Shown here piece after piece: positions 3,598 through 59,849 of a stretch of 64,000 bases of DNA. This stretch comes from Escherichia phage TH12. The DNA lies in sequence record MT446390.1. One strand, 5' to 3'. A program made the translations under genes and the position numbers. Under the pieces are notes generated by a model. That model saw only the letters and a list, made by a program, of their open reading frames with translations, was not told where the DNA came from and did not search any database. Position 1 is the stretch's first letter. Every line of letters starts with the position of its first letter.

Positions 3598-3896
3598 TGG
3601 CTCAAATCCTATCAGGCTTTGGAACTCATTATGAAGCATCTAGACGCATAACTGAAAGCAATCCTTTTGGCCTTGTTCCGAAGCACAAGAAAATTCAAAG
3701 CCTTGATGACTTTGAGAACCGCCTATGGGCCCTCTTTAATGAGTACAAGGCATATCTGAAAGAAGACGCTGACGATTGTCTTGAAGAAGATGAGATTGCG
3801 TATTACGAACAACGCCTTGAACAGCTCAAGAACTTCCATCAGGTTCGTGACGAAGTATCTAAAGCAGTTAAAAAGTTAATTCCTTTCAAAGAGTAG
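3597..3896 (+). CDS. Hypothetical protein (99 aa)
   Basis: ATG overlapping upstream stop (TAATG); compact packing. Confidence 0.55.
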
Positions 3897-3946
3897 TTTA
3901 CTTCTCCTCTAGTTGTGTTACTATAGACTTGTCAACTAGAGGAGAA
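3896..3946 (+). promoter_or_regulatory. T4-type early promoter within 14-bp perfect inverted repeat that includes the regB SD
   Basis: gtttac 3896-3901, tactat 3919-3924; arms ttctcctctagttg 3902-3915 / caactagaggagaa 3933-3946. Confidence 0.65.
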
Positions 3947-10153: not shown

Positions 10154-10181
10154 TAGGGGGTCAAAATATTTTTAAAAAGTA

Positions 10182-10210
10182 GTGTACATGTTTTTAGGAT
10201 ATGTTATTAT
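10182..10210 (+). promoter_or_regulatory. T4-type early promoter
   Basis: gtgtac 10182-10187, 17-bp spacer, tattat 10205-10210, followed by tatagacctatcaa element. Confidence 0.55.
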
Positions 10211-10249
10211 AGACCTATCAAAACGAAATGAGTAAATTTGGAGAATAAA

Positions 10250-11362: not shown

Positions 11363-11650
11363 ATGGATTTTATGCAAAAAAATAAAGCCGCAGTCGAACT
11401 CTATGCTCATCGTATGGTTAGTTCTACAATGCAATATAGCGAGGAAGTTCGCCAGGACTCTTCCTTGAAAGGAAAAACTAAAGCCTTAATTACCTTAGAT
11501 CGTTTGCAAAAGAATGCCATAGAGATGCTCCAGTACGACAAGAGTGTATATAAGAAAGAACAGGAAGAGAAACTTAAATCTGAAAAGTTACAGAAAACCC
11601 CGAAGTCGGTTTGGTTCAGTGGAAAAAATACTGAAAAAAGTTTCTTTTAG
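11363..11650 (+). CDS. Hypothetical protein (95 aa)
   Basis: ATG after AGAGGA. Confidence 0.55.
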   Translation: MDFMQKNKAAVELYAHRMVSSTMQYSEEVRQDSSLKGKTKALITLDRLQKNAIEMLQYDKSVYKKEQEEKLKSEKLQKTPKSVWFSGKNTEKSFF

Positions 11651-11708
11651 TTGTTTACAAGGTCTATGGTTGTGTTATTATAGACCTATCAACTACTGGA
11701 GGTAAAAC

Positions 11709-12298: not shown

Positions 12299-13294
12299 AT
12301 GAGCATTATATCTGATGCGGTAAAACATGAAATTAACGGTTTATGTGCTTCACAGATTAAAGTGTGGTTTAAAGACCATAACGATCGCAGAGCACTTAAT
12401 TATGAGCAAATTGCTATCCAAGTTCATCAATTACTGACTAGTAAATTTGATTTTCATATGCCATCTGAAATCTATACTAATCTGCCACGAGCACTTATTA
12501 AAGCGTGTAAAGGTTATGGAAAATCAATGGCTGATGGAATCTTCAGCGCGCTGAATAAACTTAACGTTCTGTCGATGATTAACTCTAACAATATCCTGCG
12601 TAATCTAGGACGTACTGATTTGTTCGGACGTGAACAGTGTAAAATGCCTTTGAAATGGATTGTTGCTCATCTTAACGAGAACCAAACACGTTTTATGGCC
12701 GTAACAGCACGTTTACAAATGGGCTTAGATCGTCAGATGAACTTTAAAACTCATCCATGTTATTCAGGTTCAACAGACTTTTATAAATGCGAGCTTCAAA
12801 AGGTCGGTGGCAAAACTGTCTTAGTAGTTCGTGTAACGTTTGAAGGACGACGTCAAGGATATTTTGACATAATCGGCTCTGGTCTTAAACATTGTGGATT
12901 TATCAACGAAGTTGATATCAAGCGAGACAGCGTTGGATACCGTATTGGGTATGTTTGTACTCTTAAAGAAGAGATTTCAGGACCAGCACCAGGACTAAAA
13001 GACGTTAGATATAAAGACGAGCTCGTTGAAGAAATAAAAGAAGTTGAATATGATATCAACCAAGAAGATGCTCTTAAAGACCTTATTGACGAACTAAACC
13101 AAGACGTTATTCCGGTTCAGAAATTTGAATCAAAACATGCTGAGCAAATCAAATACTTTGAAGCTTTGATTAACGAACTTAATGTAACTATTCAACAGAC
13201 TGACGATGAAATCTCACGATTAGCAGGCTTAAATGGTAAAAATAAAACAGAACGAGCTAATCTTATTCAAGTAGTAAAACTTCTTAAGGAATGA
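12299..13294 (+). CDS. Hypothetical protein (331 aa) with C-terminal coiled-coil-like segment
   Basis: ATG after TGAGGA; heptad-like C-terminus. Confidence 0.65.
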   Translation: MSIISDAVKHEINGLCASQIKVWFKDHNDRRALNYEQIAIQVHQLLTSKFDFHMPSEIYTNLPRALIKACKGYGKSMADGIFSALNKLNVLSMINSNNILRNLGRTDLFGREQCKMPLKWIVAHLNENQTRFMAVTARLQMGLDRQMNFKTHPCYSGSTDFYKCELQKVGGKTVLVVRVTFEGRRQGYFDIIGSGLKHCGFINEVDIKRDSVGYRIGYVCTLKEEISGPAPGLKDVRYKDELVEEIKEVEYDINQEDALKDLIDELNQDVIPVQKFESKHAEQIKYFEALINELNVTIQQTDDEISRLAGLNGKNKTERANLIQVVKLLKE

Positions 13295-13323
13295 TGTACA
13301 ACCAAGGATGGTTGGAGTATAAT
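13295..13323 (+). promoter_or_regulatory. Early promoter with spacer stem-loop (caacc-AAGGAT-ggttg) abutting TATAAT
   Basis: tgtaca 13295-13300, spacer hairpin, tataat 13318-13323. Confidence 0.6.
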
Positions 13324-13349
13324 AAATTTTTCAACATGAGGAATATAAA

Positions 13350-14309
13350 ATGGCTTTTATTACACGTAGAGAACTTATCAAAGAATTTACCTCGAACGCA
13401 TATACTCCAGGACCTAATCCTATCCGTATGCCTGTAAAGACTCCTGAAGAGATTGAGGAAATCTGTTCGTATTATGGGATTACTTCTCGTATGTTTACTC
13501 AATTTGAATGTGTTACTAACACGCCCGTTAAAGAGTTCATTAAAAATGGTGAGTTCAGCCGTTTATTAGCCAAACAGAAACTTCGTAATTTTTGTATTGG
13601 CGGTTGTGGACAATATTTCGCTAAGCAGTTCCGGAATAACCTTAACAATCTGATGGCCATTGCTTCTCGTATTCGTCCTCAAGCAATTAACATGAAACAT
13701 TTGAAATATACTTACGATAAGTTAGAAATCATGGTTATCAGTGAGAACGAGTTCACTCTTACGTATAAACCTAAGAATGATAACGTTGCTCGTGTATTCC
13801 ACCAAGCGCTAGAAGTGTTAGGCGATAATATCCATGAGATTAAAGCAATTTATTCTCGTGAGCTTAATATTATCGACCCTATCAAGAATAAGGGCCATAT
13901 CGCTATCCAGGCTCGTGTATCTATTGGTAAAAAGGTTCCTGCGCCATGGTGGCACAAAGACTCTGAATACTATCAAAATCTTAAAAAGGAAAATGCAACG
14001 TTCGAAGGCAATATCACAGCAACACCAGTCGGTAATGCAGAGGTTCTAAGCGCATATTCTCCGACACAACCCGGTATGTTTAAAGGTTTGCCAAATGTGT
14101 GCAAACTGTCGGCAGTAAAACTAAATGTTTCTAATGACCTTCTTCCGGCCGAAGATTATCATTACAACCAAATCAAGGCTACTGTAGACCAACTGTCCGT
14201 TGAACTTGACAAAGCACAAGCTAAGCTTCGTGATGCTCAAAGTGTTGTAACGAATCTCCAGTTGCAGTACTCTAAACTTTTTAATGCAATGAATGCATTA
14301 AAATCATAA
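13350..14309 (+). CDS. Hypothetical protein (319 aa) with C-terminal coiled-coil-like segment
   Basis: ATG after TGAGGA; own promoter. Confidence 0.65.
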   Translation: MAFITRRELIKEFTSNAYTPGPNPIRMPVKTPEEIEEICSYYGITSRMFTQFECVTNTPVKEFIKNGEFSRLLAKQKLRNFCIGGCGQYFAKQFRNNLNNLMAIASRIRPQAINMKHLKYTYDKLEIMVISENEFTLTYKPKNDNVARVFHQALEVLGDNIHEIKAIYSRELNIIDPIKNKGHIAIQARVSIGKKVPAPWWHKDSEYYQNLKKENATFEGNITATPVGNAEVLSAYSPTQPGMFKGLPNVCKLSAVKLNVSNDLLPAEDYHYNQIKATVDQLSVELDKAQAKLRDAQSVVTNLQLQYSKLFNAMNALKS

Positions 14310-14313
14310 AACG

Positions 14314-14343
14314 GTTTACAACCAAGGATGGTTGGAGTATAAT
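14314..14343 (+). promoter_or_regulatory. Early promoter with spacer stem-loop (caacc-AAGGAT-ggttg) abutting TATAAT
   Basis: gtttac 14314-14319, tataat 14338-14343; 26-nt identical to 13298-13323 and 56460-56485. Confidence 0.6.
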
Positions 14344-14371
14344 GAATCTATCTTAACGAGAGGAAAATATT

Positions 14372-15322
14372 ATGACACGTTCACATTACATTGAATACTT
14401 TGCCGGTCTTATCGCTAACGTTCATGCCCAGCGCGCTGTTGGTGCACTAGGATTTGATGTTCCACACCGAGATGTAGTAAGTGGTATTCTTCGCGATTTT
14501 GGTACATACACAGGTCAAGAAAATCATATCTGTAAAGATACTCAGAATGCGTATTCTCATTCATTAGGGACACTGCTTCAATGGTTCAAACGTTCTCGTT
14601 TATTATCTTCTACTGTAGCTCGCGATAACATTAAAAACTTTATGAAACCGAGCTTTATTAAATCTGTGACATCTAAAACCGATTTGGTTGAATTCACTAT
14701 TGTTAATGATGTTAAAAAGACTCATTTGGCTGATTGGTTATCTACCATTCCTGAAACTAAATTCGCTGATAAATTTGCTTGTGAATTCAATAACCAAGTG
14801 AATATGCTTTTTAAACATTCTCGTAAATTATTCACGGGCGGTGATGGTCGTACAAATAAAGTTCATGTTAAAGATTGGGTTACTGCAGTATTCAAACCGA
14901 CCGGTAATGGTAACGCATCATTATCAATTGATATCCAGGTTCCTTATTACTACTCACGTAATCTCGGTACCATGAAAGCTGAAGAAATTAATAAGCATAA
15001 CAAAACCGTTCGTTCATTGTCTTATAAACTTATTACATTGTTAGAGACTATGGATGTTGTTGAAACGTTCGACGAATCCGAAGATAACGGTTCAATGTTA
15101 TACAGTTCTCGCACCCGAATTAAGCTGAAGAACCCTAACGAGTATAAACTTAAGACTATTAAAGAACCTAAAGTAGAAAAAGTTGACAACTTGAGCGAAG
15201 AACGTGAATATCTCAAATCTCGTCTGAAAGAAGTCGAAGCCCAGATTAAAGAACAGACTAAATCATTAAAAGCTCTGAATGCAAAAGCTGATGGTTTACG
15301 AAATGCTATTGAGGTTTTATAA
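14372..15322 (+). CDS. Hypothetical protein (316 aa) with C-terminal coiled-coil-like segment
   Basis: ATG after AGAGGA; C-terminus LKSRLKEVEAQIKEQTKSLKALNAKADGLRNAIEVL. Confidence 0.65.
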   Translation: MTRSHYIEYFAGLIANVHAQRAVGALGFDVPHRDVVSGILRDFGTYTGQENHICKDTQNAYSHSLGTLLQWFKRSRLLSSTVARDNIKNFMKPSFIKSVTSKTDLVEFTIVNDVKKTHLADWLSTIPETKFADKFACEFNNQVNMLFKHSRKLFTGGDGRTNKVHVKDWVTAVFKPTGNGNASLSIDIQVPYYYSRNLGTMKAEEINKHNKTVRSLSYKLITLLETMDVVETFDESEDNGSMLYSSRTRIKLKNPNEYKLKTIKEPKVEKVDNLSEEREYLKSRLKEVEAQIKEQTKSLKALNAKADGLRNAIEVL

Positions 15323-44689: not shown

Positions 44690-45064
44690 ATGAATATGTC
44701 TCAAGCAATTTTTACTGCAATCACAGAAAACACAACTGTTGAAGTAGTTTCTCCACTGGCAACCTACGTTATTCTTGCCCCTAAAACTATTGTATCTCGT
44801 ATGGAAAACATGGGCAAACGTATCGTACAAATTGTCGGAGCCGGAAATCAAAAACTTGATTATCTGCGAACCATCAAAGCTTATGAACATTTCCAACTCG
44901 AAAAAGGTTCTCCTATCCGGGTAGAACTCGTAAATGGTGATATCGTTCGAGCAATGTTCCATCATTTCTATGCATTGAATGACCCATCTAAAGCGGTTCG
45001 TTTAATTGCATACGACGCAAACCAAAACGAAATCAACGCAGATATATCTAAATTACGTTTTTAA
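44690..45064 (+). CDS. Hypothetical protein (124 aa)
   Basis: ATG after AGAGGA; early-promoter-like gtttac upstream. Confidence 0.6.
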   Translation: MNMSQAIFTAITENTTVEVVSPLATYVILAPKTIVSRMENMGKRIVQIVGAGNQKLDYLRTIKAYEHFQLEKGSPIRVELVNGDIVRAMFHHFYALNDPSKAVRLIAYDANQNEINADISKLRF

Positions 45065-45115
45065 GTTTACTTCTCCGGTAGTTGTGTTATTATAGACCTA
45101 TCAACTACTGGAGAA
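45065..45115 (+). promoter_or_regulatory. T4-type early promoter with 14-bp inverted repeat sequestering the SD
   Basis: gtttac 45065-45070, tattat 45088-45093; arms ttctccggtagttg / caactactggagaa. Confidence 0.6.
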
Positions 45116-54141: not shown

Positions 54142-54453
54142 ATGGTTTATGTATATGCAATAGTTTATCGAGATATGGAAGGATTTACTGTCCCGGTTCC
54201 ACTTGATGAGCATCGTCCTGCAGTATTTTTTAGAAAGGATATTGCAGATAAAGTTTTCGATACTTTGAAAACACAGTATAAAACAGATTTAAAAATGGGA
54301 GTTCTAAGAATGGTCGAAACTCCGCGTAAGTTCTGGTTTAATAAGCTTGAAATGAAACACGTTAAACTAGATGCGGAGACGCAAAGATTGTATCAACGAA
54401 TCCTGGACACAGGCCGTATTGTTAGTATTCCAATTGCAGGGACTTTACGATGA
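54142..54453 (+). CDS. Hypothetical protein (103 aa)
   Basis: ATG right after upstream stop. Confidence 0.55.
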   Translation: MVYVYAIVYRDMEGFTVPVPLDEHRPAVFFRKDIADKVFDTLKTQYKTDLKMGVLRMVETPRKFWFNKLEMKHVKLDAETQRLYQRILDTGRIVSIPIAGTLR

Positions 54454-55763
54454 TATTTGATGATTTGACTGAAGGCCAGAAAAACGCCTTCAACGTTGTT
54501 ATGGAAGCTATTAAAGAAAAGAAACATCACGTAACTATTAATGGGCCTGCCGGTACAGGTAAAACAACCCTTACTAGATTCATCGTTGAAGCCCTTATTT
54601 CTTCTGGAGAATCAGGTATTATTTTAGCAGCCCCTACACATGCTGCTAAAAAGGTTCTAAGCAAACTTGCAGGCCAAGAAGCATCGACTATTCATAGCAT
54701 TCTTAAAATCAACCCAACTACATACGAAGAAAACGTATTATTTGAACAGAAAAAGGTTCCAGACTTAGCCTTGTGTCGTGTACTGTTATTTGATGAAGCG
54801 TCAATGTGCGACCGTTCTCTGTTTAAAATAATGTTAGCTAGTATCCCTAAATGGTGTACAGTAATTGGAATTGGTGACCGATGTCAGATTCGACCTGTAG
54901 ACCCAGGCGAATCAACTGCGTATCTAAGTCCTTTCTTCACTCACAAAGACTTCGTGCAATGCAACCTTACAGAAGTTAAACGTAGCAATGCGCCAATTAT
55001 TGATGTTGCGACCGATATTCGTAATGGCAAATGGATTTACGATAAAGTAGTTGATGGGCACGGTGTTCATGGATATACAGACCTTAAATCGTATATGATG
55101 AACTATTTTAACGTCGTTAAAACTCCTGAAGACCTTTTCGAAAATCGAATGATGGCATTCACAAATAAGTCGGTGGATAAGTTGAATTCAATTATTCGCC
55201 GAAAACTTCTCGAAACAGAAAAGCCATTTATTAAAGATGAAGTCATTGTTCTACAAGAGCCGTTTACCAAGACGTATAAGCTAGATGGCAAAAATATGAC
55301 CGAAATGCTTTTCAATAACGGGCAATTCGTTCGTATTCGGGATGCTGTAGAAACGTCTACATTCGTTAAAGCACGTGGTGTTTCAGGCGAATATATGATA
55401 CGATACTGGAATCTTACAGTAGAAACATATGGCGACGATGATGAATACGTCCGCGAGGATATAAAGGTTATTTCTTCTGAAGAAGAGCTTTATAAATTCA
55501 ATTTGTTTTTGGCTAAGACTGCAGAAACATACAAATTCTGGAATAAAGGTGGTAAAGCTCCATGGAGTGAATTCTGGGATGCTAAACGTATGTTCACTAA
55601 GGTGAAGGCACTACCAGTATCAACCTTCCATAAGGCCCAGGGTATGTCTGTTGACACGGCCTTTGTTTATACACCGTGTATCCATTATGCCGATTCAGAA
55701 TTAGCTAAACAGTTATTGTATGTCGGCACAACTCGTGGTCGTTTTGACGTCCATTTTATTTGA
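54450..55763 (+). CDS. dda: SF1 DNA helicase Dda
   Basis: Walker A GPAGTGKTT, Walker B LLFDEASM; 437 aa. Confidence 0.95.
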   Translation: MIFDDLTEGQKNAFNVVMEAIKEKKHHVTINGPAGTGKTTLTRFIVEALISSGESGIILAAPTHAAKKVLSKLAGQEASTIHSILKINPTTYEENVLFEQKKVPDLALCRVLLFDEASMCDRSLFKIMLASIPKWCTVIGIGDRCQIRPVDPGESTAYLSPFFTHKDFVQCNLTEVKRSNAPIIDVATDIRNGKWIYDKVVDGHGVHGYTDLKSYMMNYFNVVKTPEDLFENRMMAFTNKSVDKLNSIIRRKLLETEKPFIKDEVIVLQEPFTKTYKLDGKNMTEMLFNNGQFVRIRDAVETSTFVKARGVSGEYMIRYWNLTVETYGDDDEYVREDIKVISSEEELYKFNLFLAKTAETYKFWNKGGKAPWSEFWDAKRMFTKVKALPVSTFHKAQGMSVDTAFVYTPCIHYADSELAKQLLYVGTTRGRFDVHFI

Positions 55764-55772
55764 GAGAAAATT

Positions 55773-56450
55773 ATGAGCACTGATGTTATTATAGATTTTG
55801 AAACATTCGGCAATACATCAAAAGCGGCTGTTATTGACCTTGCGGTTATTGCATATAATTCCGACCCTGAAGTTGTTGAATCATTTGAAGAACTTGTTCA
55901 ACGTGGTAAGCGAATTAAATTTAATTTAGCTTCTCAAAAAGGGAAGCGAGTTTTCGCTAAATCCACTATGAAATGGTGGAAAGAACAATCAGCAGAAGCA
56001 CGTAAAAACCTTGCTCCGTCTGAAGATGATGTCACTACGCTTGAAGGCATTAAAATCTTTTTAGACTATTGCCGAGCTAATAAAGTTGACCAATGGAAAT
56101 CACAGATGTGGTGCCGTGGTATGAGCTTTGACTTCCCGATCTTGGTCGATTTGATTCGTGACCTCTATCGTGATGAAGGTGTTCTTGAACCGGATATTGA
56201 TACTGATAAATTAGAACCGGTTAAATTCTGGGCTCAACGTGATATTCGTACGGCAATCGAAGCTTACTCGTTGACACGAGGATTAAGTATGTGTCCATTA
56301 CCGATGGGTACGCTAAAAGGATTCGTTGCCCATGATAGTGTTCATGATTGTGCTAAAGATATTTTGATGTTAAAATATGCTCAGCGTTATGCGCTTGGCC
56401 TTGAAGATGTCCCTGAGAATCCTGACCCGTTAAGTGTAAAACAGCGATAA
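55773..56450 (+). CDS. dexA: Exonuclease A (DEDD family)
   Basis: IDFETFG exo motif, FDFPILVDLIRD, HDSVHDCAKD; 225 aa. Confidence 0.85.
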   Translation: MSTDVIIDFETFGNTSKAAVIDLAVIAYNSDPEVVESFEELVQRGKRIKFNLASQKGKRVFAKSTMKWWKEQSAEARKNLAPSEDDVTTLEGIKIFLDYCRANKVDQWKSQMWCRGMSFDFPILVDLIRDLYRDEGVLEPDIDTDKLEPVKFWAQRDIRTAIEAYSLTRGLSMCPLPMGTLKGFVAHDSVHDCAKDILMLKYAQRYALGLEDVPENPDPLSVKQR

Positions 56451-56455
56451 AAACA

Positions 56456-56485
56456 GTTTACAACCAAGGATGGTTGGAGTATAAT
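56456..56485 (+). promoter_or_regulatory. Early promoter with spacer stem-loop (caacc-AAGGAT-ggttg)
   Basis: gtttac 56456-56461; tataat 56480-56485. Confidence 0.6.
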
Positions 56486-56515
56486 CTTTCTATCTTAACC
56501 AAACGGGAAAACATT

Positions 56516-57010
56516 ATGAATATCAATACCACGGCTACTTACATCCTGAAAGACGAAAAACAAATCAACTGGTACAGTGCTTCAGTGCGAGCTTATGAAA
56601 AGTTTTGTGAAATTTTAGGTGCCACTCAAGGTAATAGTTTCACTATTGTTAACTTCATCAAACAAGTTGAAGGCCCTTGGTTATTCTTAGAAATTAAAAA
56701 TTCATATGGTACAATTTCTACTACCGCCCTTCCAAGCACCGACTTTGAACTGTTGATTGAAGAAGTAGAACCCGTTAAAGATATCTGTATTGATATGGAT
56801 ATCACTTGTATGTACGGTACTCTGATTAAGCCTATTGAGCCTACTGATTTGTTGTGTAAATATGTTTCAATTCGACGCCCATTCGCTGGTCCAGTAAATG
56901 GATGGGTAACTGACCAATGGATTGAAGACGATGTTGAACTTCTGAACGTTGTTCATGCAGGTGATTTTAGTGTAGTTCCACGTAGTGCTGTGGTTAATAT
57001 CCTTAATTAA
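56516..57010 (+). CDS. Paralog family member 1 (164 aa)
   Basis: Internal ATG (MNINTT); C-terminal NGWVTDQWIEDDVELLNVVHAGDFSVV shared with next two genes. Confidence 0.6.
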   Translation: MNINTTATYILKDEKQINWYSASVRAYEKFCEILGATQGNSFTIVNFIKQVEGPWLFLEIKNSYGTISTTALPSTDFELLIEEVEPVKDICIDMDITCMYGTLIKPIEPTDLLCKYVSIRRPFAGPVNGWVTDQWIEDDVELLNVVHAGDFSVVPRSAVVNILN

Positions 57011-57013
57011 TGT

Positions 57014-57042
57014 TGTACATCCAAGGACGGATGGAGTATAAT
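57014..57042 (+). promoter_or_regulatory. Early promoter with compensated spacer stem-loop (catcc-AAGGAC-ggatg)
   Basis: tgtaca 57014-57019; tataat 57037-57042. Confidence 0.6.
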
Positions 57043-57072
57043 GAATTCAACTTAAACAAAGAGAGAGAAATT

Positions 57073-57528
57073 ATGATTACTATTGGTGAAATTAAGCGTG
57101 TATCATCTGCATCTCGTTCTAAAGCTGCAGGTCGTCTGGTTGAAGTTGTCGGACTTCGTACTAATGGTACTGGACGTGTTAAAGAAGTTAAAGTTCGAAT
57201 CATTCCTAGTTCCGGAAAAACTGAAACTCAGTACGCTTACGTAAGTCCTAAATTCTTGGAAACTCATGTGAGCGCTCATTTTGCTTCTACTGAACCTAAT
57301 GTACAGTTCAAATGGGCCTTGTGTAAAGGTGTTGAATTCCAGACTGATAAAGAATTTGACTTCATCGATGAATACGGTTATCCAAGCAAAACTGATACTA
57401 TGTGCGGCTTCATTAGTGACCAATGGGTTGAAGATGGTGAAAAGTTATACAATATCGTATTCTTAGGTGACTTCCGAGTTGTTAAAGAATCTGAAATCAC
57501 TCGCTATGTGTCTCCTCGTAAAGCTTAA
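57073..57528 (+). CDS. Paralog family member 2 (151 aa)
   Basis: Internal ATG (MITIGEIK); SRSKAAGRLVEV...GFISDQWVEDGEKLYNIVFLGDFRVV. Confidence 0.6.
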   Translation: MITIGEIKRVSSASRSKAAGRLVEVVGLRTNGTGRVKEVKVRIIPSSGKTETQYAYVSPKFLETHVSAHFASTEPNVQFKWALCKGVEFQTDKEFDFIDEYGYPSKTDTMCGFISDQWVEDGEKLYNIVFLGDFRVVKESEITRYVSPRKA

Positions 57529-57537
57529 GGAATTATT

Positions 57538-57957
57538 ATGAATATTGTAAATCTCTCTACAGGTGATTACGTATATGTATCTGTTGCTTCTCGCTCTAAA
57601 GTTGCCGGGAAGTTGGTTGAAGTTCTTTCTGTGAGTGATCCGGTTTTTGGTCGTAACCAAGTTAAAGTTCGTGATGCTAATGGTAATATTGGCTACGTCT
57701 CAAGCCAGTTCATTGAGCCAGAAGAAAAAGCGTTCAAATGGGGACTATGCAGATCAGTTTCTGTTGAAAAAGACCATGAATTCACTATTGCTGCGGCAAC
57801 TGATGGAACGCCATGGAAAACTAAGCAAATCGGCGGATTTATTAGCGACCGTTGGGTAGAAGATGGTGTTAAGCTTTATAACATCGTTTTCGCTGGTCAG
57901 TTCATGGTAGTTCCTGAATTCCAAATTAAAAAATATAGCCCAGCTGCTTTCGCATAA
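57538..57957 (+). CDS. Paralog family member 3 (139 aa)
   Basis: SRSKVAGKLVEV...GFISDRWVEDGVKLYNIVFAGQFMVV. Confidence 0.65.
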   Translation: MNIVNLSTGDYVYVSVASRSKVAGKLVEVLSVSDPVFGRNQVKVRDANGNIGYVSSQFIEPEEKAFKWGLCRSVSVEKDHEFTIAAATDGTPWKTKQIGGFISDRWVEDGVKLYNIVFAGQFMVVPEFQIKKYSPAAFA

Positions 57958-57961
57958 AGTT

Positions 57962-58012
57962 GTTTACTTCTCCTCTGGTTTTGATATTATAACCATATCA
58001 ACCAGAGGAGAA
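57962..58012 (+). promoter_or_regulatory. T4-type early promoter with 13-bp perfect inverted repeat sequestering the SD
   Basis: gtttac 57962-57967, tattat 57985-57990; arms ttctcctctggtt 57968-57980 / aaccagaggagaa 58000-58012. Confidence 0.65.
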
Positions 58013-58016
58013 TAAT

Positions 58017-58541
58017 ATGTTAGTTTACCGCGTAGAACGTAGTTTTTGTACTCAACGTGAATCATTACCAGGAATTGCTATCGAAGACGGTAAAGCCGTC
58101 AGAATTTGGGAAACCTCTTGGAATAAAGAACCTCGCTCGCCATACGGTTGGTCGGGCACCGACAACTCTGAAGAAACATGGGAGTTCCTTGATAAACATG
58201 GAATACTCTCAGGTAACTTCTACCATCACGGCGACAACTATAATGTCCCTAATCGTCCTACAGTAAATGAAGACAAACTCCTTGAACAAAATATCTTAAG
58301 ATACTATAGAATTGAGCACACATTTGAATTGAGTGAAGATTGGGCTCAAGGGTTCTATTTTGGATTTGAAAGTGTTGATGCGGTTTATGCATGGTTTGAT
58401 GACCAGGTGGATGTTGAACTCTTGAAAGCTAAAGGATACTACATCGCGGTCTATGAAGCACCTGATTTCATCCTCGGAAGTTGTCAATTAATGTTTAGAC
58501 GTTCATTGGCAGAACAAGTTGATTTTATTTTGCTAAAATGA
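58017..58541 (+). CDS. Hypothetical protein (174 aa)
   Basis: ATG after GAGGAG. Confidence 0.6.
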   Translation: MLVYRVERSFCTQRESLPGIAIEDGKAVRIWETSWNKEPRSPYGWSGTDNSEETWEFLDKHGILSGNFYHHGDNYNVPNRPTVNEDKLLEQNILRYYRIEHTFELSEDWAQGFYFGFESVDAVYAWFDDQVDVELLKAKGYYIAVYEAPDFILGSCQLMFRRSLAEQVDFILLK

Positions 58542-58598: not shown

Positions 58599-58826
58599 AT
58601 GAAACGTCAAATCATTAAAAACGTAACTACTGATTCAAATATCGATGAGTTTGAAGATGTTCTGTTTAATCCTGATTTAGTTGTTGTACAGAAAAACTGG
58701 ACTGAATTTTTATGCTACACTGAAGTGGTTTACGTTTACGAAAAACTAGGCGATGAAATGCCTATCTATGGTATCTTCCGTGAAATCACTGAAAATGGTA
58801 CAACTTATTGGAAGGAAACTTACTAA
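58599..58826 (+). CDS. Hypothetical protein (75 aa)
   Basis: Internal ATG after AGAGGAG; track start 58554 lies in promoter. Confidence 0.5.
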
Positions 58827-59236
58827 TGGCTAATAAATTCCGCGTTAACTTATGGTACCAATTTAAAGATAAACGTGCCCAAGAAGAGTTTATTAAAAAC
58901 CACACTGATAATGGGATTTATGCACGACGTCTTGGCCTGGAACCATTTAAAGTATTAGATGTTGACCATCTTGGTCGTCCTACTAAAATTGTGACATCTA
59001 CTGGCATGGTTGGATACGCAACAGGCGGTGATATTCTTGATGAAAACTTTATCTGGCTCTCTACTAGTGAAGCAGAGTTTTTTGATGAAGTGGGAAATCC
59101 GTATCAAGCGTCCGAAGAGCAAGATTCTGGTGAACTTGACGAATTGTCTGAATTTCCGGTGATGACAATTACTATCGAAAATAACGACCAGGCATGGTCT
59201 TTGTATCAAATGTTGAAAGCACATTTTAAGGAATAA
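58826..59236 (+). CDS. Hypothetical acidic protein (136 aa)
   Basis: TAATG overlap. Confidence 0.55.
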
Positions 59237-59423: not shown

Positions 59424-59849
59424 ATGGCTTTTAAAGGTTTTGAAGTTGGTAAGAAATATCGTATTATCAAAGGACAGGAAGATAATTTCTTGAGAATTCT
59501 TAATACGACTGGTAAACGTCTTAATACTAATCTGCATACTACTTTATTGTCCAAAGATTTTATTGTGGAAGAGATGATTGGTTACGGTGTTTCAATGATT
59601 GCTGTAGAAGCCGTAGGCGATTATGGCCGAACTATTCATAGTATGCAAGGTGATATTCTGCTTTATGGTGCAGAATTTAAATTCTTTGAAGAAGTTCAGG
59701 AACCAGATACAGCTGTCGATTTCAAAAAAGGCTCTATAGAATTTGTTGATGGTTCGGTGATCGTATCAGGCGATGTGGTCATTACAGTTAAAAGTGAACA
59801 AGGGCGTTTGGCTGTAATTGATGCACTTCAGAAAATTAAATTTAAATAA
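59424..59849 (+). CDS. Hypothetical protein (141 aa)
   Basis: ATG right after upstream stop. Confidence 0.6.
   Translation: MAFKGFEVGKKYRIIKGQEDNFLRILNTTGKRLNTNLHTTLLSKDFIVEEMIGYGVSMIAVEAVGDYGRTIHSMQGDILLYGAEFKFFEEVQEPDTAVDFKKGSIEFVDGSVIVSGDVVITVKSEQGRLAVIDALQKIKFK

Follow-up and report, generated by a model that had tools for sequence, protein, structure and literature searches.

The early region that follows dexA in Escherichia phage TH12 is probably a motB.1-motB-motB′ cluster, in which three adjacent genes share a C-terminal barrel, two of them form a KOW-type pair from an old duplication, and the three products perform related but non-redundant jobs. We read the jobs as related but non-redundant because the same C-terminal domain is held under purifying selection in all three proteins, whereas charge and N-terminal domain have diverged. 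As a discovery this carries little weight, since a Pfam entry exists, RefSeq has the name 'MotB-like transcriptional regulator' for two of the three genes, and two motB genes together with motB.1 have already been published for RB69 (Patterson-West et al. 2021, PMC7827196). The additions made here are minor: 207 phage records with the second MotB type, the occurrence of hybrid motB genes, frameshifted motB.1 genes in the T4 and RB69 references, and an apparent SH3/Tudor-like character of the common C-terminal domain. A preliminary description of this DNA, which saw a tandem triplication of a diversifying host-interaction or anti-defence family with a promoter for each gene, had observed something real apart from the third promoter; its interpretation was partly right, in that this is a host-takeover family, but the family is neither diversifying nor a simple triplication.

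We analysed a window of 64,000 nucleotides (MT446390.1), which matches Mosigvirus phages, e.g. LH01 and PhAPEC2, at 97-98% nucleotide identity and whose source we assign to Mosigvirus (RB69-like T-even phages). The three genes, here called M1, M2 and M3, lie on the same strand between dexA and cef, in the order dda-dexA-M1-M2-M3-motB.2-cef-goF-39.2-...-39; 3' of motB.2 follow cef, a goF-like gene, a zinc-ribbon ORF, a 141-aa ORF and topoisomerase gene 39. The synteny dda-dexA...cef-goF-39 is conserved in the phages compared (T4, RB69, PhAPEC2 and RB10). All three ORFs downstream of dexA are on the + strand, with exactly the limits that had been given for them. The region comprises:

54450-55763, + strand: dda, upstream of dexA
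55773-56450, + strand: dexA, directly 5' of M1
56450-56499, + strand: predicted early-promoter cassette before M1, TTTACA-17-TATAAT at 56457-56485, 11/12 matches in the promoter scan
56516-57010, + strand: M1 = motB.1, 164 aa, intact ORF
57007-57056, + strand: predicted early-promoter cassette before M2, TGTACA-17-TATAAT at 57014-57042, of the same repeat family as that of M1
57073-57528, + strand: M2 = motB, 151 aa
57527-57537, + strand: M2-M3 junction, Shine-Dalgarno AAGGA overlapping the M2 stop, 9 nt from stop to M3 ATG
57538-57957, + strand: M3 = second MotB paralogue (motB′), 139 aa
57947-58012, + strand: boundary element after M3, a copy of the 64-nt promoter and stem-loop repeat, TTTACT-16-TATTAT
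58017-58541, + strand: motB.2, 174 aa, corresponding to T4 MotB.2 (BLASTP against T4 proteins)

The start codons of M1, M2 and M3 were set by alignment to the T4 proteins: M1 begins MNINTTATY as against MIKINTAYQ in T4 MotB.1, and M2 begins MITIGEIKRVS as against MIINIGELARVS in T4 MotB; some gene callers give M2 an upstream-extended start (172 aa).

Alignment of the three proteins revealed that M2 and M3 are 43% identical over 145 columns along their full length (E 7e-32), whereas M1 aligns with M2 (E 3e-9) and M3 (E 7e-10) at the C-terminus only, over 29-36 residues of 42-52% identity; all these values lie far past chance similarity. Profile comparison showed that the homology covers the entire C-terminal domain, M1 ~108-164 corresponding to M2 78-151, with the blocks LLCK.V.I and (A/G)LC(K/R).V aligned and a loop insertion in MotB. 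The core G-aromatic-[VI]-[TS]-D-[QR]-W-[VI]-E-D ... L-x-N-[VI]-V stands at the C-terminal end of each protein, and the common block noticed earlier was recovered in M1, M2 and M3 as G(W/F)(V/I)(T/S)D(Q/R)W(V/I)ED..(L/K)L(L/Y)N(V/I)V..G.F.VV, while the N-terminal segment SRSK(A/V)AG(R/K)LVEV, ascribed to the second and third members, was found in M2 (SRSKAAGRLVEV) and M3 (SRSKVAGKLVEV) only. Scores against PF17613 (motB) are 32.5 bits for M1, 132.4 for M2 and 75 for M3, the Pfam gathering threshold being 25, and the PHROG matches are consistent, to MotB-like or MotB.1 families (M1 to phrog_2333, E 3e-81). On these comparisons we conclude that M1 is the orthologue of T4 MotB.1, M2 the orthologue of T4 MotB, and M3 a second MotB. 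M2, like M3, has the KOW-type N-terminus with SRSK(A/V)AG(K/R)LVEV and the dexA-cef position of MotB proper (Category 1 of Patterson-West et al. 2021); M1 combines T4 MotB.1 orthology with a five-stranded N-terminal sheet in its AlphaFold2 (AF2) model, the LSm label of that domain coming from the literature. Of the earlier triplication, then, a single paralogous family remains, but the homology of M1 to the others is confined to its last 55-70 residues, its N-terminal domain being unrelated.

A six-frame HMM scan of the 64 kb window found exactly three copies of the family, and neither a fourth copy nor a free-standing 29-aa motif peptide was found in the window by these searches. MotB.2 has no sequence relationship to M1, M2 or M3. 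The MotB family is a narrow one. When 1.84 billion representative proteins were searched with a profile built on the C-terminal domains of M1, M2 and M3, no more than 28 clusters matched, 25 of which are ~100-250 aa long and carry the domain at their C-terminal end, and Foldseek matches to viral models were mostly proteins of T4-like phages.

Comparison with T4 places the pair and its neighbour in a familiar setting. T4 MotB (motB, PF17613, PHROG 1671) aligns end to end with M2 and M3, with which it shares, besides a linker, the N-terminal KOW-type motif SRSKAAGKLVEV and a C-terminal core of G(Y/F)I(T/S)DQWVEDGVKLYN(V/I)VF, and its gene has the same home in the early region from dexA to cef; T4 differs in having a single motB, whose product is 48% identical to M2 and 37% to M3 (BLASTP against T4 proteins). 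M3 differs from T4 MotB in its near-neutral N-terminal domain and much shorter linker. T4 MotB.1 (PHROG 2333; 37% identity over 134 aa) resembles M1, which is 48% identical to RB10 MotB.1, in that its gene adjoins motB and in the DLLCK...GWVTDQWIEDGVELLNVVHAG C-terminal domain, but M1 has a linker insert of ~20 residues (DMDITCMYGTLIKP) that the T4 protein lacks. RB69 has the same arrangement (RB69p011 and RB69p010, 151 and 139 aa, 9-nt spacing): M2 is 96% identical to RB69 MotB, and M3 has the same length and position as RB69p010. MotB homologues, MotB and MotB.1 included, have been sorted into classes with a common C-terminal domain and differing N-terminal domains (PMC7827196).

The three proteins are built from the following parts:

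M1: acidic N-terminal domain (helix and beta sheet), low-confidence linker with DMDITCMYGTLIKP, MotB-type C-terminal domain ~108-164
M2: basic KOW-type N-terminal barrel (SRSKAAGRLVEV), disordered linker 62-85, C-terminal beta barrel 86-146
M3: KOW-type N-terminal domain (SRSKVAGKLVEV, near neutral), short linker, MotB C-terminal domain

Structure prediction with family alignments gave, for M1 and M2 alike, AF2 models of two beta domains with a low-confidence linker. In the M2 model (pLDDT 84.6) the N-terminal strands span residues 7-57, linker 62-85 has low confidence, and the C-terminus forms five strands at 86-146 with pLDDT >90; in the M1 model (pLDDT 79) residues 8-83 form one helix and five strands, followed by a linker at ~84-115 and C-terminal strands at 116-163. 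No OB-fold, cold-shock or eIF5A chain was among the best 60 structural matches of either whole model, and a PDB sequence search with M2 returned no match at E up to 1. In the C-terminal domains of both models a short helix separates strand 4 from strand 5, a feature typical of SH3-like barrels. Because of this helix and the lack of an OB-fold among either set of 60 matches to the whole models, the C-terminal domain common to the proteins appears to be SH3/Tudor-like and not the cold-shock-type OB-fold predicted for MotB by HHpred (PMC7827196). Kim et al. 2025 (PMC12152347) assign an LSm-like barrel to the N-terminal domain of MotB.1 and relate it to GoF and Frd.2. Two further ORFs in the window, 59424-59849 (141 aa, before gene 39) and 58826-59236 (goF-like), match PHROG 622, and the former also matches the N-terminal positions of a full-length M1-family profile weakly (E 0.09) and phrog_2333 (E 4e-4), which fits the published GoF/Frd.2/MotB.1 N-terminal domain family. 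The motif DMDITCMYGTLIKP occupies M1 linker residues 92-106 (about 56789-56833) and is absent from T4-type MotB.1; it recurs at the extreme N-terminus of the MotB.1-like proteins P0132, P0147 and P0160, and Klebsiella-phage relatives have a related motif, a pattern that looks like that of a mobile short linear motif.

Consensus matches from a sequence scan, which stand here for promoters in place of mapped 5' ends, support a T4-type early promoter of their own for M1 and M2, but the promoter that had been credited to M3 was not recovered: there is no + strand promoter-like site at 57043-57962, and no site in the 3' end of M2 reached the scan criteria. Given a 9-nt junction without a promoter, M3 is most likely co-transcribed with M2 as a bicistronic unit. 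This 9-nt spacing is kept in all related phages examined (PhAPEC2, RB69, SF, JS09, LF82-41, RB10 and Sf23).

The promoters before M1 and M2 belong to a 50-nt cassette repeat (family D2) with five copies in the window, at 1421-1470, 13288-13337, 14308-14357, 56450-56499 and 57007-57056. The cassette consists of GTTTACAACCAAGGATGGTTGGAGTATAAT and a leader, the copies at 14308 and 56450 being 92% identical, and the 22-mer CCAAGGAYGGWTGGAGTATAAT occurs 4 times as against 0 expected. The ORFs at 12299-15322, two of which have the same cassette 5', were considered as another tandem family and showed no detectable mutual similarity. The element after M3 belongs to a 64-nt repeat (family D1), likewise with five copies in the window (3881-3944, 10167-10230, 11638-11701, 45050-45113 and 57947-58010), each made of GTTTAC…TATTAT and a stem-loop; at least four of the copies have a 3' stem arm whose last bases are the GGAG of the Shine-Dalgarno downstream. 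In the hairpin predicted after M3 (-23.9 kcal/mol, z -5.7) the motB.2 Shine-Dalgarno is base-paired; in such cassettes the ribosome site would be masked in read-through transcripts and exposed in transcripts begun inside the cassette. PeSL cassettes of T4-type phages were reportedly described by Arbiol et al. in 2010 and by Comeau et al. in 2014. The 64-nt element resembles these promoter-early stem-loop elements (PMC4122927). Repeated TTTACW-N16/17-TAYWAT cassettes flank both M1 and M2 and also the boundary 3' of M3, where the cassette has a strong stem-loop; the cassettes before M1 and M2 differ in having no obvious stem-loop. Gene order also varies, being dexA-motB.2-motB.1-motB in T4 and RB10 and dexA-motB.1-motB-motB′-motB.2 in the window, where the displaced motB.2 sits 3' of the promoter and stem-loop cassette. 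This difference in order suggests that the PeSL-like cassette may have helped to move motB.2 from the place it has in T4.

What the cluster does can be approached through T4 MotB, an early protein that binds host and modified T4 DNA non-specifically, alters H-NS binding to DNA, co-purifies with H-NS and StpA, is toxic in E. coli and raises burst size about 2-fold (PMC6070864, PMC7827196). The biological role of the family is still soft, since knock-down of T4 motB barely altered the phage transcriptome and deletion of motB.1 had no burst phenotype (PMC12152347). By analogy, M2 would be the functional equivalent of T4 MotB. Net charges of the N-terminal and C-terminal domains are +8 and -4 in M2, +1 and +2 in M3, and -5 and -4 in M1 (-10 for the whole of M1); the N-terminal +8 of M2 is compatible with DNA binding of the T4 MotB kind, the +1 of M3 and the -5 of M1 less so. 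The charge pattern makes it more likely that DNA is bound by the N-terminal domain and a partner by the C-terminal domain; it argues against the shared C-terminal domain as the DNA-binding part, and the conservation of that domain even in acidic MotB.1 likewise favours partner binding or self-association over DNA binding.

We therefore propose the following scheme. Right after infection, host RNA polymerase would most likely read M1 and M2 from the two repeated T4-type early promoters, M3 being carried on the M2 transcript. All three proteins are predicted to end in a common five-stranded beta-barrel of 55-70 residues, tied by a flexible linker to an N-terminal barrel, which in M2 and M3, full-length paralogues from an old tandem duplication, would be of KOW type and in M1 of an unrelated fold, LSm-like according to the literature. 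M2, with its strongly basic KOW domain, would coat DNA non-specifically and shift H-NS and StpA on it, with a modest gain in phage yield, as for T4 MotB. In near-neutral M3 and acidic M1 the C-terminal domain would have been kept while charge and N-terminal domain diverged, making them diverged partners rather than spare copies; the C-terminal domain would serve as a shared partner-binding or self-association module, with DNA contacted via the basic KOW domain. A more specific and rather unlikely version has the C-terminal domain as an SH3/Tudor-type docking or hetero-association module that brings the three N-terminal barrels to one host target, e.g. H-NS/StpA filaments; if it held, MotB.1, MotB and MotB′ would be a three-part nucleoid-remodelling set (basic KOW, neutral KOW, acidic LSm-like) and not independent proteins.

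Of the readings that depart from this scheme, one takes the proteins for RNA-directed or transcription/translation-coupled factors, whose N-terminal barrels, KOW (NusG/Spt5-like) or LSm-like, would engage RNA polymerase, ribosomes or mRNA and not the nucleoid; it would suit the historical name 'modifier of transcription', and we consider it distinctly unlikely.

The age and constancy of the genes bear on whether the copies are interchangeable. Pairwise Nei-Gojobori estimates (simple counting, 7-9 orthologue sequences per gene) gave a median dN/dS among orthologues of 0.17 for M1, 0.22 for M2 and 0.15 for M3, as against 0.065 for dexA; folded domains taken singly gave 0.13-0.27, and the linkers alone reach 0.43-0.50. 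M1, M2 and M3 are thus under purifying selection, with no median or domain value above 1, which contradicts their earlier characterization as diversifying. Between M2 and M3, dN is 0.51 and dS 1.73 (saturated). In a neighbour-joining tree rooted with a Klebsiella-phage relative, where long-branch effects are possible, the M3 clade stood outside all other MotB orthologues in 271/300 bootstraps. An initial neighbour-joining tree had grouped M3 with two odd sequences; as both proved to be chimeras of N-terminal and C-terminal domains, they were removed and the bootstraps redone. The saturated dS, the outside position of M3 and the different N-terminal domain of M1 run counter to a recent triplication, and we conclude that the cluster is an old motB duplication beside a gene with a different N-terminal domain. 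Of 778 phage records with a match to M3, 207 carry an M3-type protein (at least 80% identity) and 0 lie at 60-80%. M3-type proteins are at least 86% identical across two phage genera; the type is also found in Tequatrovirus RB10 and Sf23, where it follows motB at the same 9-nt spacing. The second MotB type is therefore common and old, and no oddity of RB69.

These data weigh on the idea that the copies are a matter of dosage, M2, M3 and, via its C-terminal domain, M1 doing the same job and extra copies raising early MotB activity. The conserved C-terminal domain of all three and the KOW motif common to M2 and M3 speak for it, as does the sufficiency of one motB in T4 and many Tequatrovirus phages. 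So does a set of hybrid motB genes, P0035 (L012 1373-1894) and P0103 (L013 3001-3492, L014, L015), whose N-terminal domain and linker are of M2 type or T4 type and whose C-terminal domain, joined on at FKW..LC, is of M3 type. Each hybrid is the sole MotB-proper gene of its own contig, P0103 in at least three samples; that such genes replace the pair in these contigs suggests that the domains are interchangeable, and the pair has apparently been collapsed to a hybrid by recombination of one tandem paralogue with the other. Redundancy is nevertheless very improbable: M2 and M3 retain only 43% identity with saturated dS, each paralogue forms its own clade separately under purifying selection, their charge distributions differ strongly, and the identity of M3-type proteins across two genera is unexpected for a spare copy.

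The preliminary description had favoured a fast-diversifying anti-defence or host-range family whose tandem copies track variable host targets. The early region is indeed plastic, with many repeated promoter cassettes, swapped N-terminal domains, linker indels and chimeras, and genes have moved between genera: compared with RB10, the window shows a dS of 0.37 (M2) and 0.53 (M3) as against 2.1 (dexA) and 1.6 (M1), which indicates exchange of the motB pair. We hold the anti-defence reading to be very doubtful all the same, given dN/dS of 0.13-0.27 in every folded domain without an excess of replacements, known targets (H-NS/StpA and DNA) that are conserved in the host, no defence system known to be countered, and T4 motB and motB.1 mutant phenotypes that are mild or absent on laboratory strains. 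To our knowledge, no counter-defence activity has been reported for the MotB family in the literature surveyed. Of 'host-interaction or anti-defense', the host-takeover part accords with the action of T4 MotB on DNA, H-NS and StpA, and for the anti-defence part we found no evidence. A possible glimpse of the family's earlier shape is offered by Klebsiella phage Biddle_MM4 (L005 2980-3360), whose sole family member is a 126-aa protein with a MotB-like KOW N-terminal domain and a MotB.1-type C-terminal domain 72% identical to that of M1; this protein may be near the ancestral form.

Some side results are of modest practical use for workers on T-even early genes: the commonness and age of the second MotB type, the charge pattern that speaks against DNA binding by the shared C-terminal domain, and the frameshifts described below. 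In T4 (NC_000866, L001 3484-3653, minus strand) the unannotated gap between motB and cef encodes …FAKGVDTLLKRIAPLFN*, the C-terminal end of an 89-aa gene that in RB10 comes after the second motB; this remnant suggests that a deletion removed both the second motB and the greater part of the 89-aa gene from T4. The 29-aa 'Category 3' peptide of Patterson-West 2021 and the 119-aa T4 MotB.1 used experimentally both stem from frameshifted reference sequences. In the RB69 reference NC_004928, two 1-nt insertions leave motB.1 (L006 3377-3873, minus strand) in two pieces, RB69p013 (132 aa) and RB69p012 (29 aa), whereas the gene in the window is intact at 164 aa; because of this split we identify the 29-aa peptide, on the sequence, as the tail of a broken motB.1 and as no separate gene. 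In the T4 reference (NC_000866 4143-4420, minus strand; 119 aa) a 1-nt shift stops motB.1 inside the conserved motif, …GGWVTDQWIGRWR, and the continuation lies in the next frame, LEDGVELLNVVHAGEYSVVPRSAVVAILN; owing to this frameshift, the published work on a 13.8-kDa MotB.1 may have used a protein without most of the C-terminal domain. An intact MotB.1 of 143 aa is encoded by resequenced T4 OZ209023 (L016 987-1418) and represented by P0115, on 256 contigs.
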